The notes under the pieces are model-generated. The model was not told the origin of the DNA and did no database searches. It was given only the letters and a program-made list of their open reading frames with translations. Positions 12,260 through 16,571 of a stretch of DNA of 64,000 bases are shown piece by piece. The stretch is taken from positions 832 through 64,831 of the forward strand of contig NZ_JAQUVF010000011.1 of the NCBI RefSeq assembly GCF_028693505.1. The letters run 5' to 3'. Source of the DNA: Oscillibacter sp. Lineage in GTDB: Bacteria > Bacillota > Clostridia > Oscillospirales > Oscillospiraceae. Position numbers and translations under genes: made by a program. The first letter of the stretch is position 1; each line of letters opens with the position of its first letter.

Positions 12260-12832
12260 TTACAACCGCAGAATTTTGGCTTCCAGCGCGGCGGCGGACG
12301 CCGCCTCATGAGTCACCAGTATCACTATCTTCCCCGCGCTGCGGCGGCGGATGCTCTCCATGGCGCGGGAGCGGTTTTCCCCATCCAGCCCGGTAAACGG
12401 TTCGTCCAGCGCCAGCGCGTCGGAGGGGGCCAGCAACGCCCGGCAAAGCGCCAGACGGCGCTTCATGCCGCCGGAGTACGCCCGGACCGGTTTCCCGCCT
12501 GCGTCGCCAAGGCCCAGCTCCTTCAACATTTGACGGGCCTGCGATTCCTCCAGCGCCGCGCCCAGCACAAAGCGCAGATTGCCCAGCGCGTCCAGGTGCT
12601 CCAAAAGACGGTCCTCCTGAAAAACAGCCGCCCAGCGCAGTCCCTCCGGCACGATCACCCGCCCGCTGTCCGGCGTCTCGAGGCCCAGCAAAAGGCGCAG
12701 CAGCGTTGTTTTCCCACTTCCCGAGGGCGCCATCACGCAGGTGACGCCGCGCTCCACCGTGAAGGAGAGGTGATCCAGCACGGTTTTTCCGCCATAGGCC
12801 TTGCAAAGGTTCTCTACGCGCACTTCCATCAT
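12260..12832 (-). CDS. ABC transporter ATP-binding protein (SsuB/TauB-like)
   Basis: Walker A PSGSGKTT, signature YSGGMKRR, LDEPF and VTH motifs. Confidence 0.9.
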   Translation of the reverse strand: MMEVRVENLCKAYGGKTVLDHLSFTVERGVTCVMAPSGSGKTTLLRLLLGLETPDSGRVIVPEGLRWAAVFQEDRLLEHLDALGNLRFVLGAALEESQARQMLKELGLGDAGGKPVRAYSGGMKRRLALCRALLAPSDALALDEPFTGLDGENRSRAMESIRRRSAGKIVILVTHEAASAAALEAKILRL

Positions 12833-13647
12833 CTGCCCGCCTTTCCCGCAAGCGTATCCACCGCCCGCAAAAACAGCTTCTCAAACACCACGGACACCGC
12901 CACAATGACAGCGGTCCACGCGAAGAGGTCTGGCGTTTGGAAATACACCTTGGCGGTGTACAGCCGCTCGCCGATGGTTCCGGCGGGCAGGCCGATGACC
13001 TCCGCCGCCGCGCCGGCCTTCCAGCAAAGGCCCAGCGACAGCGACACGGCGGAGCGGAAATAAGGCAGCACCGCGGGCAGCCAAATACCCCGCAGTCGCC
13101 GCCAGAGGGGCACGTGAAAGACCGCCGCCATCTCCAGAAGGCTCCGGTCCGCCCCGTCGATCCCCGAGAGCACGTTGAGGTAAACCGGGGGGAATACCAT
13201 CAGGGCGGAAATGAACAGCGGCAGCGTATGGCTGTCAAGCCACACCAGCGCCAAAATGACGAAGGACACCACCGGCACCGCCTTGACCGCCGCCACCAGC
13301 GGATAGAGTAGCTCCCGGACGGCGGGCAGCCGGGCAGCCGCAGCCGCCAGCACCACCGCCAGTGCGCAGGAGAGCAGAAAGCCGCCGAAAATATGCGCCG
13401 TGGAATTACCCACCGCCTGCCAGAAGGCGGCGGTGCCCGCCAGCTCAAAAAGCCGGCTTAGCGCCGAGAGCGGGGACGGCAGCAGCAGCCCTCCGTGGGG
13501 GAGCGCGGCACGAAACGCCATGCTCGCCCCCTGCCACACCAGCAGCCACACGCCCACCGCCCAAGGCCGCAGGGCGTTTTTTTTACGCGCCGTAGTAGAA
13601 GTCGTCGCCGGGCAGCTTGCCGCCCACGGATTCCGCCGCTGCGTCAT
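12829..13647 (-). CDS. ABC transporter permease (SsuC/TauC-like); start codon uncertain
   Basis: LLLPSPLSAL, AVPVVSFVILAL, WKAGAAAEVIG motifs. The annotated start overlaps the upstream gene by 65 bp. Confidence 0.85.
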   Translation of the reverse strand: MTQRRNPWAASCPATTSTTARKKNALRPWAVGVWLLVWQGASMAFRAALPHGGLLLPSPLSALSRLFELAGTAAFWQAVGNSTAHIFGGFLLSCALAVVLAAAAARLPAVRELLYPLVAAVKAVPVVSFVILALVWLDSHTLPLFISALMVFPPVYLNVLSGIDGADRSLLEMAAVFHVPLWRRLRGIWLPAVLPYFRSAVSLSLGLCWKAGAAAEVIGLPAGTIGERLYTAKVYFQTPDLFAWTAVIVAVSVVFEKLFLRAVDTLAGKAGR

Positions 13648-14572
13648 AAAGCACCTCCAGATAGCCCGACAGCTTCTCCTTCATCTCGCTGCCGGTAATG
13701 CAGACAATATTGCACGCAGGCAGTGCCTTTTCCGCCACGGCGGCGTCCACAATGCCCATCTCGCCAATCTTCACGGCGGCGTCGGCAGTGTTTGCGTTCA
13801 CCCAGTCCACGGAGGCGGCGTAATCCTGCAAAAGCGTCTCCACCGCGGCGGGATGCGTTTCCACAAAGTCCTTCCGGGCCACCACCACGCCGGTGAGCAG
13901 GGCGGAGCCATTTTCCAGCGCGTCCCACTCTTTGGTAAGGTCCAGCGCCACCCGCAGATTTTCGATCTTCCCCTGTGCCACGGTGACAAAGGGCTGGGGC
14001 AGCAGGGCGATGGTCGCGGCCCCGGACGCCAGCGCCGCCACGCACTCGCTGTGCTCGCTCTTCCAGTCGATGATCACGTCCGTGTCCGGGTCCAGACCGT
14101 TTTGCTTAAGCAGATACTGCAGGGCGTACTCCGGCGTGGACCCCTTGCCGGACGCCGCGATGGTGGTGCCCCTCAGGTCCTTTATGGACTGCACGGCGTT
14201 GCCGTTTTCCACGATATAAAGGACGCCCAGCGTGTTGATGCCAATGGTCACGATCTGCCCCTCGGTCTTGTTGTAGAGCACGGAGGCGAGGTTTGCCGGC
14301 AAGCAGGCCACGTCCAGTTCGCCCTTGATGAGTGCCGGGGTCAGCTCGTCGGCGCTGGCGGCAATGTGCAGATCATAGCGCTCTGCCCCAGCCTCGCTCT
14401 CTTCCAGATTCACAAGGCCCATGGCGGTGGGACCCTTCAATGCCCCGATGCGGACGGTGACGTCCTCCTCCACCGGCGGGGCAGGTGTTTCCGCCTGTTT
14501 TCCGCAGGCGGTCAGCGACAGTATCAGCGCCGCGCTCAGGCACAGCGCAAGGCCTTTTTTCCATAGATTCAT
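13583..14572 (-). CDS. ABC substrate-binding lipoprotein (SsuA/NMT1-like)
   Basis: Lipobox LTAC, GALKGPTAMG, INTLGVLY, SGKGSTPEY and LLPQPF motifs. Confidence 0.88.
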   Translation of the reverse strand: MNLWKKGLALCLSAALILSLTACGKQAETPAPPVEEDVTVRIGALKGPTAMGLVNLEESEAGAERYDLHIAASADELTPALIKGELDVACLPANLASVLYNKTEGQIVTIGINTLGVLYIVENGNAVQSIKDLRGTTIAASGKGSTPEYALQYLLKQNGLDPDTDVIIDWKSEHSECVAALASGAATIALLPQPFVTVAQGKIENLRVALDLTKEWDALENGSALLTGVVVARKDFVETHPAAVETLLQDYAASVDWVNANTADAAVKIGEMGIVDAAVAEKALPACNIVCITGSEMKEKLSGYLEVLYDAAAESVGGKLPGDDFYYGA

Positions 14573-14589
14573 ATTGCAGTTCCTCTCTT

Positions 14590-14850
14590 TCACTCTCTGA
14601 GGGCGTCCTCCGGCGCGTACACGGTTTTCGCCGTGATGCCCGGCAGACGTCCGATTTTTCCGGACAGCGCGGAGATGGCATCCCCCGGCGCGTCCATGGC
14701 AACACTGATGATATTCACGCCCCGCTCCCGATACGGCACACCCATTCGGCCGATGATGTACCTGCCGTATTGGTGCAGCAGGTCGTTCAGCGCGGCGACA
14801 GAGTCGTCCCTACGCACAATGATGGCCAGCACGGCCACCCGCGTCTCCAT
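14590..14850 (-). CDS. TM1266-family (putative iron-only hydrogenase system regulator) ACT-like protein
   Basis: METRVAVLAIIV..LNDLLH..YIIGRMGVPY..INIISVAMDAP..ISALSGKIGRLPGI. Confidence 0.85.
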   Translation of the reverse strand: METRVAVLAIIVRRDDSVAALNDLLHQYGRYIIGRMGVPYRERGVNIISVAMDAPGDAISALSGKIGRLPGITAKTVYAPEDALRE

Positions 14851-14873
14851 ACAGTTTTCCCCCTTTCTCAGCG

Positions 14874-14912
14874 AAAAAATAACATCCCCTCTGCCGTTTC
14901 GCAGAGGGGATG
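14874..14912 (-). terminator. Leader intrinsic terminator upstream of the TM1266-ABC operon
   Basis: On the minus strand: CATCCCCTCTGC-gaaacg-GCAGAGGGGATG-TTATTTTTT, 23 nt before the ATG. Confidence 0.85.
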
Positions 14913-15040
14913 GATGCACCAAATGCCGCACGGAAGTCCGTGCCGCGTTTTCCCCGTCTTTCGGTTTGGAGCTTTCCTCACCGGCAGAACGACATATGAA
15001 GGCAGCGGGTCCTCCGGTCAGAAGCACTTTCCGGGGACGA
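14913..15040 (-). ncRNA. Candidate cis-regulatory structured leader (riboswitch-like, unassigned)
   Basis: Lies between a canonical promoter and a terminator. P1 is TCCCCG/CGGGGA, and its 3' strand can alternatively pair with the terminator 5' arm. Confidence 0.55.
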
Positions 15041-15044
15041 GGCA

Positions 15045-15073
15045 AGTATACTCTGCTTTTTCTCTCCCGTCAA
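15045..15073 (-). promoter_or_regulatory. Sigma70/SigA promoter
   Basis: TTGACG-17 bp-TATACT on the minus strand. Confidence 0.75.
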
Positions 15074-15095
15074 GAAGGCGGGGATGGCGCTTTCC

Positions 15096-16571
15096 TCAGC
15101 ACCGGCCGAAGGTGTGGGTGAGGTCCCGCATCTGCCTTGCCAGCGCCGGCGAGGTCGCCCCCGGTTCCATTCGCCACCGCCAGTTGCCGTTTGCAACGCC
15201 GGGCACATTGATCCGCGCCGCCGTGCCAAGGCCCAGATAATCCTGCATCTGGGCCACAAACAGCTCCGCCACGCTGCCACTGCCGCAGCGCAAAAGTGCC
15301 TGCGCCACGTCGCGAGCGTCGTCCCCCACGCCCAGATACGCCCGCGCGTAGGCCTGCTCCGCCTCGGTAGCTCCGGTATACCAGCCCACGGCGGTATCGT
15401 TGTCGTGGGTGCCGGTATAGCACACGCAATGTGGCCCATAGTTATGGGGAAGATAGGCGTTATCCGGTCCCGAGAAGGCGAACTCCAGCACCTTCATCCC
15501 CGGCAGGAGCGCAGCGCGGCGCAGTGCGTGCACCGCGTCGGTCAGCAGGCCCAAATCCTCGGCAATATAGGTGATTTGCGGAAACCATGCGGTGAGTACG
15601 CTCAAAAGGTCCATGCCCGGACCCTTTTCCCACGTGCCCTCCTTGGCGCTTTTGGCCCGGGCCGGAATCGCCCAGTAGCTTTCAAATGCCCGGAAGTGGT
15701 CCAGCCGGACGGCGTCGAACAGGCAGGAAACACCCTCCACTCGCCGAATCCACCAGCCAAAGCCGTCCCGTTTCTGGGCGGGCCAGTCGTAGAGCGGATT
15801 GCCCCACAGCTGCCCCTCCTCAGAAAAGTAGTCCGGCGGCACGCCCGCCACTGCGGCGGGTTTCCCGTCCCCGTCCAGCAGGAACTGCCCCCGCTCGCTC
15901 CACACGTCCGCAGAGTCCAGCGACACGTAGATGGGCAGGTCTCCGATGATCTTTACGCCCCGCTCGTTGGCATGGCGCTTCAAGGCGGCCCACTGGTCAA
16001 AAAAGCAGCATTGGACCCAGCTGTGAAAGGCAATTTCGCACTTGAGCTCCTCTCGCCAGCGCTCCACCGCGGCGCTCTCATGTCCCCGCAGCGCCAGATC
16101 CGGCCAGTCGTACCAGGGCGCGCCGCCAAAGTGGTCCTTCGCCGACTGGTAGAGGGCGTATTCCCGCAGCCACGGCGTCTTGCTTTCAAAAGCGCGGACC
16201 CTTTCCGCCTCCCTTTCATCGATCTGCGCAAAGGCCTTGCGCAGCAGTGCGCCGTGGCTCTTTTCCACCGCCGGGTAATCCAAAAGTCCGCCCTGCGGCA
16301 TCCGGGATGCAGCAAGGTCCGCCACCGAGAGCAGTCCCCGCTCCGCCAGCGATTCCAGATCGACAAAAAGCGGATTCCCGGCGAAGGTCGACGCGCTGGT
16401 ATAGGGGGAGTTTCCCGCCCCCGCCGGACCCACCGGCAAAACCTGCCACCAGCGCTGGCCCGCGTCGGACAGGAACTTTACGAATGCCCGGGCCTCCGCG
16501 CCCAGAGACCCGATGCCGTAAGGCGACGGCAATGAAAAAATCGGCAGCAAAATACCGGCGGAACGTTCCAT
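15096..16571 (-). CDS. malQ: 4-alpha-glucanotransferase (amylomaltase, GH77)
   Basis: GILLPIFSLP, IIGDLPIYV, AGVPPDYFS..GQLWGNPLY, RLDHFRAF, AEDLG and YTGTHDNDT motifs. Confidence 0.95.
   Translation of the reverse strand: MERSAGILLPIFSLPSPYGIGSLGAEARAFVKFLSDAGQRWWQVLPVGPAGAGNSPYTSASTFAGNPLFVDLESLAERGLLSVADLAASRMPQGGLLDYPAVEKSHGALLRKAFAQIDEREAERVRAFESKTPWLREYALYQSAKDHFGGAPWYDWPDLALRGHESAAVERWREELKCEIAFHSWVQCCFFDQWAALKRHANERGVKIIGDLPIYVSLDSADVWSERGQFLLDGDGKPAAVAGVPPDYFSEEGQLWGNPLYDWPAQKRDGFGWWIRRVEGVSCLFDAVRLDHFRAFESYWAIPARAKSAKEGTWEKGPGMDLLSVLTAWFPQITYIAEDLGLLTDAVHALRRAALLPGMKVLEFAFSGPDNAYLPHNYGPHCVCYTGTHDNDTAVGWYTGATEAEQAYARAYLGVGDDARDVAQALLRCGSGSVAELFVAQMQDYLGLGTAARINVPGVANGNWRWRMEPGATSPALARQMRDLTHTFGRC

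Follow-up and report, generated by a model that had tools for sequence, protein, structure and literature searches.

A leader from a family of probable RNA attenuators absent from the catalogues searched precedes a TM1266 and ABC importer operon in Oscillibacter

Protein-dependent transcription attenuation is exemplified by PyrR, a small ligand-loaded protein that is encoded in the operon it regulates, binds an element of the leader and favours the terminator over the antiterminator, which results in feedback repression. TRAP governs the protein-dependent attenuation of trp genes in Bacillus. A different solution is used by SAM-III (SMK box) riboswitches in the metK leaders of Lactobacillales, in which the Shine-Dalgarno sequence lies within the aptamer and is sequestered upon binding of S-adenosylmethionine. 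Here, a leader of approximately 190 nt was analyzed that separates a promoter from an operon encoding a TM1266-like protein and an ATP-binding cassette (ABC) importer of the SsuA/NMT1 type. It is found in a stretch of 64,000 nucleotides (termed the window) from Oscillibacter sp. (RefSeq assembly GCF_028693505.1, contig NZ_JAQUVF010000011.1, positions 832 to 64,831), and all leader coordinates are read on the minus strand of this window. The leader is a transcription attenuator from an RNA family that was found in no catalogue or paper searched. Its conserved part is a small module that occurs twice, each time as a helix with a purine internal loop that places CUGA opposite GAAAG.

Known RNA classes were searched with the Rfam 15 covariance models. 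The whole window yielded no match at the gathering score, and a search of positions 14700-15250 with E-values up to 10 returned two noise matches, both outside the leader. Twenty related loci gave only one 5S rRNA and two tRNAs at the gathering score, and six loci carrying a short form of the leader (described below) gave only noise at E-values up to 5. The families without a covariance-model match include SAM-III/SMK box, TPP, xanthine-I (NMT1 motif), HMP-PP (thiS), THF, Moco and NiCo, and the full-text literature search found no paper tying TM1266 or hydE, hydG or hydF to a riboswitch or RNA motif. Searches of the literature on the importer and on alternative maturation yielded no description either. 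A preliminary description of the locus, made from the window alone, had already been unable to place the leader in a known class, which the Rfam results bear out. It had also pointed to a loose likeness to SAM-III, and this part was abandoned: no Rfam match lies behind it even at E = 10, control is exerted at a terminator, and the leader lies among other genes. The ribosome-binding site (14863-14859) sits 20 nt past the terminator stem, which ends at 14883, and outside every conserved helix, so the arrangement expected of SAM-III is not found.

The architecture of the leader can be read from its promoter onwards. A -35 box (TTGACG, 15068-15073) and a -10 box (TATACT, 15045-15050) are separated by a 17-nt spacer and match 10 of the 12 positions of a sigma-70-like consensus; TTGAC is aligned among the relatives described below and a TATAAT-like box in 28 of them. 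Transcription likely starts near position 15038, as judged from the promoter spacing. A consensus scan of the surrounding 900 nt (14500-15400) detected no other promoter-like site (shuffled sequences give 0.2) and a single terminator-like site, the 12-bp stem with U tract detailed below. The first structural element, hairpin 1 (15009-15038), has an 8-bp stem with one bulged A, reads GUCCCCGG-AAAG-UGC-UUCUGA-CCGGAGGAC from 15038 to 15009 and carries the first copy of the module at its tip, where G-AAAG (15031-15027) faces UCUGA-C (15022-15017). It is followed by a linker (14989-15008) that is variable in the alignments, save for a conserved CUGYCGUUCUG run entering hairpin 2. Hairpin 2 (14957-14988) reads UUCUGCCGGU-GAGGAAAGCUCCAA-ACCGAAAGA from 14988 to 14957, with UCUGC-CGGU, UGAGG-AAAGC-UCCAA and ACCG-AAAGA as its parts; GAGGAAAGCTCC occupies positions 14979-14968 and AAACCGAAAG positions 14967-14958. 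The second copy of the module forms the base of this hairpin (14987-14983 and 14962-14958) and reads CUGC in the window, not CUGA. The two copies have opposite topologies, the first lying at the tip of its hairpin and the second at the base.

Downstream of the modules lies a purine tail, AGA(C)GGGGA (14951-14959), which is a candidate antiterminator strand and whose AGA doubles as the base of hairpin 2. Hairpin 3 (14925-14946) varies between species, contains a GCACGG-ACUU-CCGUGC core at 14943-14928 and is missing from three of the related loci (L018, L024 and L026). The intrinsic terminator (14874-14912) is formed by a 12-bp stem (14912-14883) followed by TTATTTTTT, with the U tract at 14882-14874; it ends 24 nt upstream of the start codon (ATG at 14850), and the ribosome-binding site between them reads GGGGG. 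The promoter, the GCACGG hairpin, the terminator with its U tract and the ribosome-binding site had all been placed correctly in the preliminary description. The minimum-energy fold of the transcript from its likely start consists of exactly hairpins 1, 2 and 3 and the terminator (-74.1 kcal/mol), and the leader folds better than its shuffled versions (z = -3.2, reached by 0 of 200 shuffles). It is unique within its own genome, as an nhmmer search recovered it with E = 1.3e-19 and the next match with E = 0.79.

Conservation was analyzed in 80 loci gathered via TM1266 homologues. In Oscillibacter, Dysosmobacter and other Oscillospiraceae (L002-L030 and L033), the leader can be aligned from promoter to terminator, and the leaders of 28 Oscillospiraceae species represent this long form. 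Hairpins 1 and 2 are paired in 92.1% of all cells of this alignment, compared with 87.8% in shuffled alignments (reached in 0 of 500) and at most 53% in slid registers. Changes on both sides of a pair were observed at 9 pairs in 24 cells, compared with 3.7 pairs and 6.5 cells in shuffles (0 of 500). In hairpin 1, such changes affect 5 of 10 pairs and include CG/GC/UA at columns 24-54 and CG/UA at columns 22-57; in hairpin 2, which is 95.2% paired, they affect 4 of 9 pairs. The terminator is paired in 96.4% of cells (88.5% in shuffles) with 7 pairs and 24 cells changed on both sides, and none of 500 shuffles reached the observed pairing percentage, the number of double-change cells or the covariation score. 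The collection of orthologous leaders thus revealed sequence conservation and compensatory changes across 28 species, and the strong covariation of the terminator supports the earlier proposal of a terminator-based cis-regulatory leader on the importer operon.

The same alignment argues against the form of the aptamer that had been proposed. It was originally described as a single domain of about 95 nt, closed by a helix P1 between TCCCCG (15037-15032) and CGGGGA (14956-14951), with a 3' strand that switches between P1 and the terminator arm, and distantly resembling SAM-III/SMK. The two hexamers are indeed present and complementary in the window genome, and the energy fold of a slightly longer transcript gives a similar outer helix. 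Nevertheless, P1 is paired in 69.0% of cells compared with 69.5% in shuffles, 350 of 500 of which reach the observed value, and the outer helix from the energy fold performs equally poorly (75.5% compared with 76.0%); neither helix has double changes above the shuffle level. Instead, the 5' hexamer shows covariation with CCGGAGGAC, its partner in the stem of hairpin 1. Because of these covariation counts, GUCCCC was assigned to the stem of hairpin 1 and not to a long-range helix. The single P1-closed aptamer is hence considered highly improbable, and two separate hairpins take its place.

In more distant Clostridia, a short form recurs, in which CUGAC, a 3-4 bp stem, GAAA, a cap, UUGAG, the other stem strand and GAAAG(A/G)YRC follow each other and lead into a terminator. 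Both strands of this hairpin read YUGA-N3/4-(G)AAR, so that the helix is two-fold symmetric and contains two 2x2 purine loops. Its architecture, as captured in the short-form model R1/A5, is that of hairpin 2, which makes the second module copy of the window the counterpart of the short form. Forty-six short-form leaders were aligned to R1; they are 99.7% paired compared with 90.6% in shuffles and contain 47 double-change cells compared with 11.6 (0 of 500), values that come from an alignment fitted to R1 and hence biased towards its structure. The C-G and U-A pairs that flank the loops are invariant or nearly so in the 28 long-form leaders (columns 27-51, 30-48, 31-47, 89-121 and 90-120). The central stem of 3-4 bp covaries, with CG/UA, GC/AU and CG/UA exchanges among columns 93-117, 94-116, 96-115 and 97-114 of the long form; in the short form, 14 cells show AU/GC and 21 cells show CG/UA exchanges. 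Both forms are connected by intermediates whose cap is long (L066, L124, L127, L153 and L177). R1, which was built from the 4-bp short form, detects only noise in the genome of the window (E = 7 and 9.5, both outside the leader), and the long form differs from R1 in its cap and in the C at the loop position. The proposed membership of the window leader in the short-form module family is therefore suggested by anatomy and intermediates, not by a model score. A kink-turn or hammerhead-like interpretation of CUGA...GAAA was also considered and rejected, as alignments A2 and A3 contain no 3-nt bulge, no CUGAUGA core and no three-way junction. The order of the modules is reversed at four loci of a single family (f105; L154, L159, L165 and L172), which are HydG-negative and importer-positive: a CUGA-GGCG...CGCC-GAGGAAA hairpin comes first, a CCCG-AAGG-nnn-UUCUGA-CGGG hairpin second and a terminator last.

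These data also bear on the idea that no switch exists at all, with the hairpins being incidental or part of a leader peptide or an N-terminal extension, and the terminator merely ending malQ. An open reading frame (14590-15045) that starts with TTG at 15045 does run in frame with TM1266, and malQ ends at 15096 without a terminator of its own before the promoter. Against this, it is the RNA that is conserved: pairs change in a compensatory manner, and the gaps vary in length without keeping to multiples of three. In addition, malQ and the leader are separated by a consensus promoter, the terminator is found downstream of that promoter and shortly before the start codon, and the combination of module and terminator recurs ahead of functionally linked operons in many families. 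The RNA-level covariation and the frame-breaking gaps led to the rejection of a leader peptide or an N-terminal extension, and an incidental origin of the whole arrangement is barely credible. The upstream gene malQ encodes a 4-alpha-glucanotransferase and ends 23 nt ahead of the -35 box, so that transcription of malQ may continue into the leader.

How the modules might control the terminator is suggested by complementarity. The purine tail (14959-14951) is complementary to the 5' arm of the terminator at 14910-14903 (UCCCCUCU). Binding of an effector would lock the modules and hold the AGA at the base of hairpin 2, the purine tail could then not hold the 5' arm, the terminator would form and the operon would be OFF. 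If no effector were bound, AGA(C)GGGGA would pair with UCCCCUCU and RNA polymerase would read through. In the long-form leaders, the tail-to-arm pairing is kept in 78% of cells compared with 49-60% in slid registers. As shuffles reach the same level, this is conserved complementarity, not covariation. The earlier proposal of mutually exclusive pairings consequently stands in part: the competition between tail and terminator arm is plausible, and the half that involves P1 shows no covariation. In 43 short-form leaders, the complementarity of the module 3' strand plus tail to the terminator 5' arm exceeds that of shuffles (mean z = -1.13; t-test p = 7e-8, Wilcoxon p = 1e-6), and the conserved GAAAG frequently takes part in this pairing. 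An OFF response upon effector binding is therefore plausible, as far as the match between module and terminator arm can tell.

Two results speak against this mechanism. A fold that is forced to contain the antiterminator reaches -65.8 kcal/mol compared with -74.1 kcal/mol, so that the terminator fold is 8 kcal/mol more stable at equilibrium and read-through must be kinetic or aided by some further factor. Moreover, neither the antiterminator nor any other long-range helix tested shows covariation in the 28 leaders, and the OFF-on-binding polarity accordingly has complementarity only to draw on. The fact that the terminator is the thermodynamic default would also fit the opposite polarity, in which an effector on hairpin 1 keeps GUCCCC away from the tail, the tail holds the terminator arm and the operon is ON. 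By composition, GUCCCC, GACGGGGA, AUCCCCUCU and AGAGGGGAU do provide a set of 1:2, 2:3 and 3:4 pairings as required for such a scheme. However, the 1:2 pairing does not covary, and the short-form relatives have no hairpin 1, while the 3' strand of their module itself pairs with the terminator arm, giving OFF on binding. An ON switch is for these reasons regarded as improbable.

The distribution of the module beyond the Oscillospiraceae was determined by searching 401 Clostridia genomes with R1. Matches were found in 24 genomes, one in each, of which approximately 21 are credible. Most of these are located directly upstream of TM1266. Other matches precede hydG (L091 and L101), hydE-hydG (L100) or operons of FecCD-type permeases (L085 and L093), and one lies between TM1266 and hydE (L088). 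Short-form loci that had been found via TM1266 run on into HydE, HydG, HydF or a FecCD permease, and the module also heads TM1266-hydE-hydG(-hydF) operons. The module thereby defines a regulon in which the synthesis of the hydrogenase cofactor is joined by TM1266 and by ABC importers of both the SsuA and the FecCD type. The literature searched contains no account of the regulation of genes for [FeFe]-hydrogenase cofactor assembly, and TM1266 has so far been only a "putative regulator" without a mechanism; a conserved RNA operator gives the question of how these genes are controlled a concrete object. Two FecCD-type importer operons behind the module contain a gene for an ABC ATPase fused to a TM1266-like domain. 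In L115, this gene (676-1734) is followed by a NifH-like gene (1759-2526), and in L114, on the minus strand, it (403-1740) is followed by a HydE-like radical SAM gene.

The TM1266 protein, together with a ligand, is the most likely effector of the module, although the chances for and against it appear about evenly balanced. A ligand-loaded TM1266 oligomer would recognize the two-fold-symmetric module in a manner comparable to PyrR or TRAP, and its ligand would be the compound imported by the transporter or one made by HydE, HydF or HydG. In the window, the TM1266-like gene (14590-14863 on the minus strand including the ribosome-binding site, ATG at 14850) encodes 86 amino acids and matches both PF21699 (E = 1.7e-30; 105.2 bits, curated cut-off 27) and TIGR03959 (108.2 bits, cut-off 60.8). 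The product, an ACT/NikR-C-like small protein, also matches the structure of Thermotoga maritima TM1266 (PDB 2NZC, E = 2.2e-12), and profile and structure-match searches detected no DNA-binding domain. TM1266 is encoded in all 21 genomes with a credible R1 match; it lies beside the match in 15 of them, whereas of the other six, five have it elsewhere in the genome and one (G187) immediately upstream of the module. In addition, 30 importer loci were sampled through the binding protein, a sample that is unbiased towards TM1266. The RNA is present in four of them (the locus of the window, L123, L124 and L127), each of which contains TM1266. Among the 26 loci without the RNA, none contains TM1266, and in 22 cases the gene is absent from the entire genome. 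TM1266 is thus gained or lost with the RNA at importer loci, which indicates that the transporter can do without it and that its presence follows the RNA and not the cargo genes. This behaviour, the dyad symmetry of the module, whose YUGA-N3/4-(G)AAR on both strands is as in the sites of oligomeric proteins, and the lack of a DNA-binding domain together point to TM1266 as the effector.

Several observations pull in the other direction and favour a true riboswitch, in which the CUGA/GAAAG modules would bind a small molecule or metal complex directly and thereby favour the terminator, with TM1266 being frequent cargo that binds or buffers the ligand or serves the transporter as a regulatory subunit. 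The co-occurrence of TM1266 and RNA could mean no more than that TM1266 is the commonest cargo gene of such a riboswitch. The ATPases of FecCD-type operons bear a C-terminal TM1266-like domain, and this fused domain looks less like an RNA binder than like a substrate sensor through which the transporter is inhibited by feedback, which suggests that it binds the transported compound and not RNA. The module is also found directly before hydG, hydE-hydG and FecCD operons that have no free-standing TM1266 in cis, and the order of promoter, conserved structured domain, terminator and ribosome-binding site is the architecture of classical OFF riboswitches on importers. Tandem small modules are familiar from guanidine-II and glycine riboswitches. 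Furthermore, the same importer is under a Crp/Fnr-type factor in other lineages, and the replacement of a riboswitch by a transcription factor is a familiar pattern in comparative genomics. Approximately 10 of the 26 RNA-less importer loci show a Crp/Fnr gene (8 loci) and/or a GTTGC-N4-GCAAC palindrome (10 loci). Within L120-L148, the Crp/Fnr-family gene occurs at 8 of 29 loci, where leader RNA and TM1266 are absent (two of these genes were confirmed by Pfam), and the palindrome is located upstream of the promoter, approximately 60-90 nt before the binding-protein gene, at 10 of 29. The entire genome of the window contains only 5 sites of this palindrome. The conserved part of the RNA is, however, very small for a riboswitch, with two 2x2 purine loops in plain two-fold-symmetric helices and neither a junction nor a pseudoknot. 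A motif-bearing genome without TM1266 was encountered in none of the 21 genomes with credible R1 matches and at none of three further importer loci, and at importer loci TM1266 comes and goes with the RNA and not with the transporter. Direct ligand binding by the RNA is therefore a serious possibility that falls short of being probable, and TM1266 remains the preferred candidate for the effector.

The remaining genes of the operon follow TM1266 on the minus strand and encode the importer. The substrate-binding lipoprotein (13583-14593) matches the Phosphonate-bd, NMT1_2, NMT1 and SsuA_fam profiles, with 3HN0 as the closest solved structure. The ABC permease (12829-13647) matches BPD_transp_1, with its true start probably downstream of 13647, and a compact ABC ATPase of 190 amino acids (12260-12832) was identified by profile matches. 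Pfam- and TIGRFAM-type matches thus substantiate all four genes of the operon as originally described. An alignment of binding-protein homologues revealed a Cys-Asn pair, of which C294 is conserved in 66 of 66 and N295 in 65 of 66 sequences; further conserved residues are LKGPT (52-56), D94, GKGxTPE (149-155), LPQP (198-201), W223 and Y258. Free cysteines are not usually conserved in this extracytoplasmic class, and C294 may touch the ligand. The binding-protein homologue contains an in-frame stop in two genomes (G529:C3:10551-11555 and G437:C5:2524-3447). G529 belongs to the small group of genomes that combine the importer homologue with HydG, and the stop would fit the decay of a redundant importer.

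The TM1266 family owes its naming to its position adjacent to HydE, HydG and HydF, which is not the situation in the window, where TM1266 heads an ABC importer. Genome-wide searches of the window genome (2.06 Mb, 97.65% complete), which contains one TM1266 gene and one leader copy, did not find HydE, HydG or HydF. Three HydA-type genes are present (C36:28324-29232 and C14:2626-3486 on the minus strand, and C26:34338-35048 on the plus strand). Two of them possess all H-cluster motifs, TSC(C/S)PGW, MPCxxKKxE and ExMACPGGCxGGGGQP, and the third, on contig C26, has kept the first and the third motif and shows no match to MPCxxKxxE. Likewise, all 29 genomes with the TM1266 and SsuA-type importer operon encode HydA, and none of them has HydF or a HydG above the cut-off, compared with three control genomes with TM1266-hydEG, in which both HydG and HydF are present. 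A 2024 Cell paper (PMC11216029) describes it as unresolved how organisms with [FeFe]-hydrogenases obtain active enzyme without HydE, HydF and HydG. The organism of the window, a gut bacterium, is such a case, having HydA without the maturases and a sole TM1266-leader unit that drives an importer complementary to HydG across the order.

This complementarity was determined in an even sample of 151 Oscillospirales genomes, in which HydA was found in 148, HydG in 61 and a homologue of the binding protein in 80. Both HydG and importer occur in 8 genomes, HydG only in 53, the importer only in 72 and neither in 18 (odds ratio 0.038; Fisher p = 9e-17, a test that ignores phylogeny). Stratification by family, which corrects for kinship only partly, left p = 6e-9, with 14 of 30 families holding both states. 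Importer and maturases behave as alternatives. Five HydA-positive genomes with neither of the two encode TM1266, and the one that was inspected (G256) has the module, TM1266 and a FecCD permease in this order. Adjacency of importer and HydA is too rare to be used, with one clear case (G467) and one within 7 kb (G473) among the matches listed. In the former (G467:C1:414287-416502, L138), the binding-protein gene is found 339 bp downstream of HydA with a terminator-like hairpin in between, and the genome lacks both HydG and TM1266.

It follows from these patterns that the importer may replace cofactor synthesis. A more specific and tentative proposal, which we would sooner doubt than accept, is that the SsuA-type importer (elsewhere the FecCD-type) takes up a ready-made H-cluster precursor from the gut community in place of HydE, HydF and HydG in the many Oscillospirales that have kept intact [FeFe]-hydrogenases after losing all three maturases, and that leader and TM1266 sense this same compound. 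The evidence for such a salvage is distributional only; candidates for the imported compound are the [2Fe] subcluster itself or a product of HydG or HydE. If true, salvage would explain why one RNA module governs either biosynthetic genes or importers, would represent the first natural route of H-cluster salvage and would answer how organisms without maturases activate HydA.

The leader can finally be compared with the systems that it resembles most. With guanidine-II (mini-ykkC) and other tandem-hairpin riboswitches it shares two short hairpins, each with a tiny conserved element and probably acting together. The conserved nucleotides are, however, located in internal loops instead of ACGR tetraloops, control is exerted over termination instead of the ribosome-binding site, and the copies in the window have opposite topologies (tip and base), with the order reversed in f105. 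The TPP riboswitch (thiXYZ) and the xanthine-I riboswitch (NMT1 motif RNA) likewise combine a promoter, a structured leader and a terminator before an operon for an NMT1/SsuA-type importer. Neither of these families matches the window or its relatives at any threshold tried, the leader has no multi-helix junction and its regulon concerns hydrogenase maturation instead of thiamine or purine metabolism. The PyrR-dependent pyr attenuators (RF00515) and TRAP differ in that no sequence or Rfam relationship links them to the window leader, whose operator is a two-fold-symmetric helix with CUGA/GAAAG purine loops that occurs once or twice, and in that the candidate protein TM1266 has an ACT/NikR-C-like fold without a known role in RNA binding. 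What PyrR and TRAP have in common with the proposed system is a small ligand-loaded protein that acts on a conserved leader element, favours an intrinsic terminator and thereby exerts feedback repression on genes of biosynthesis and uptake.

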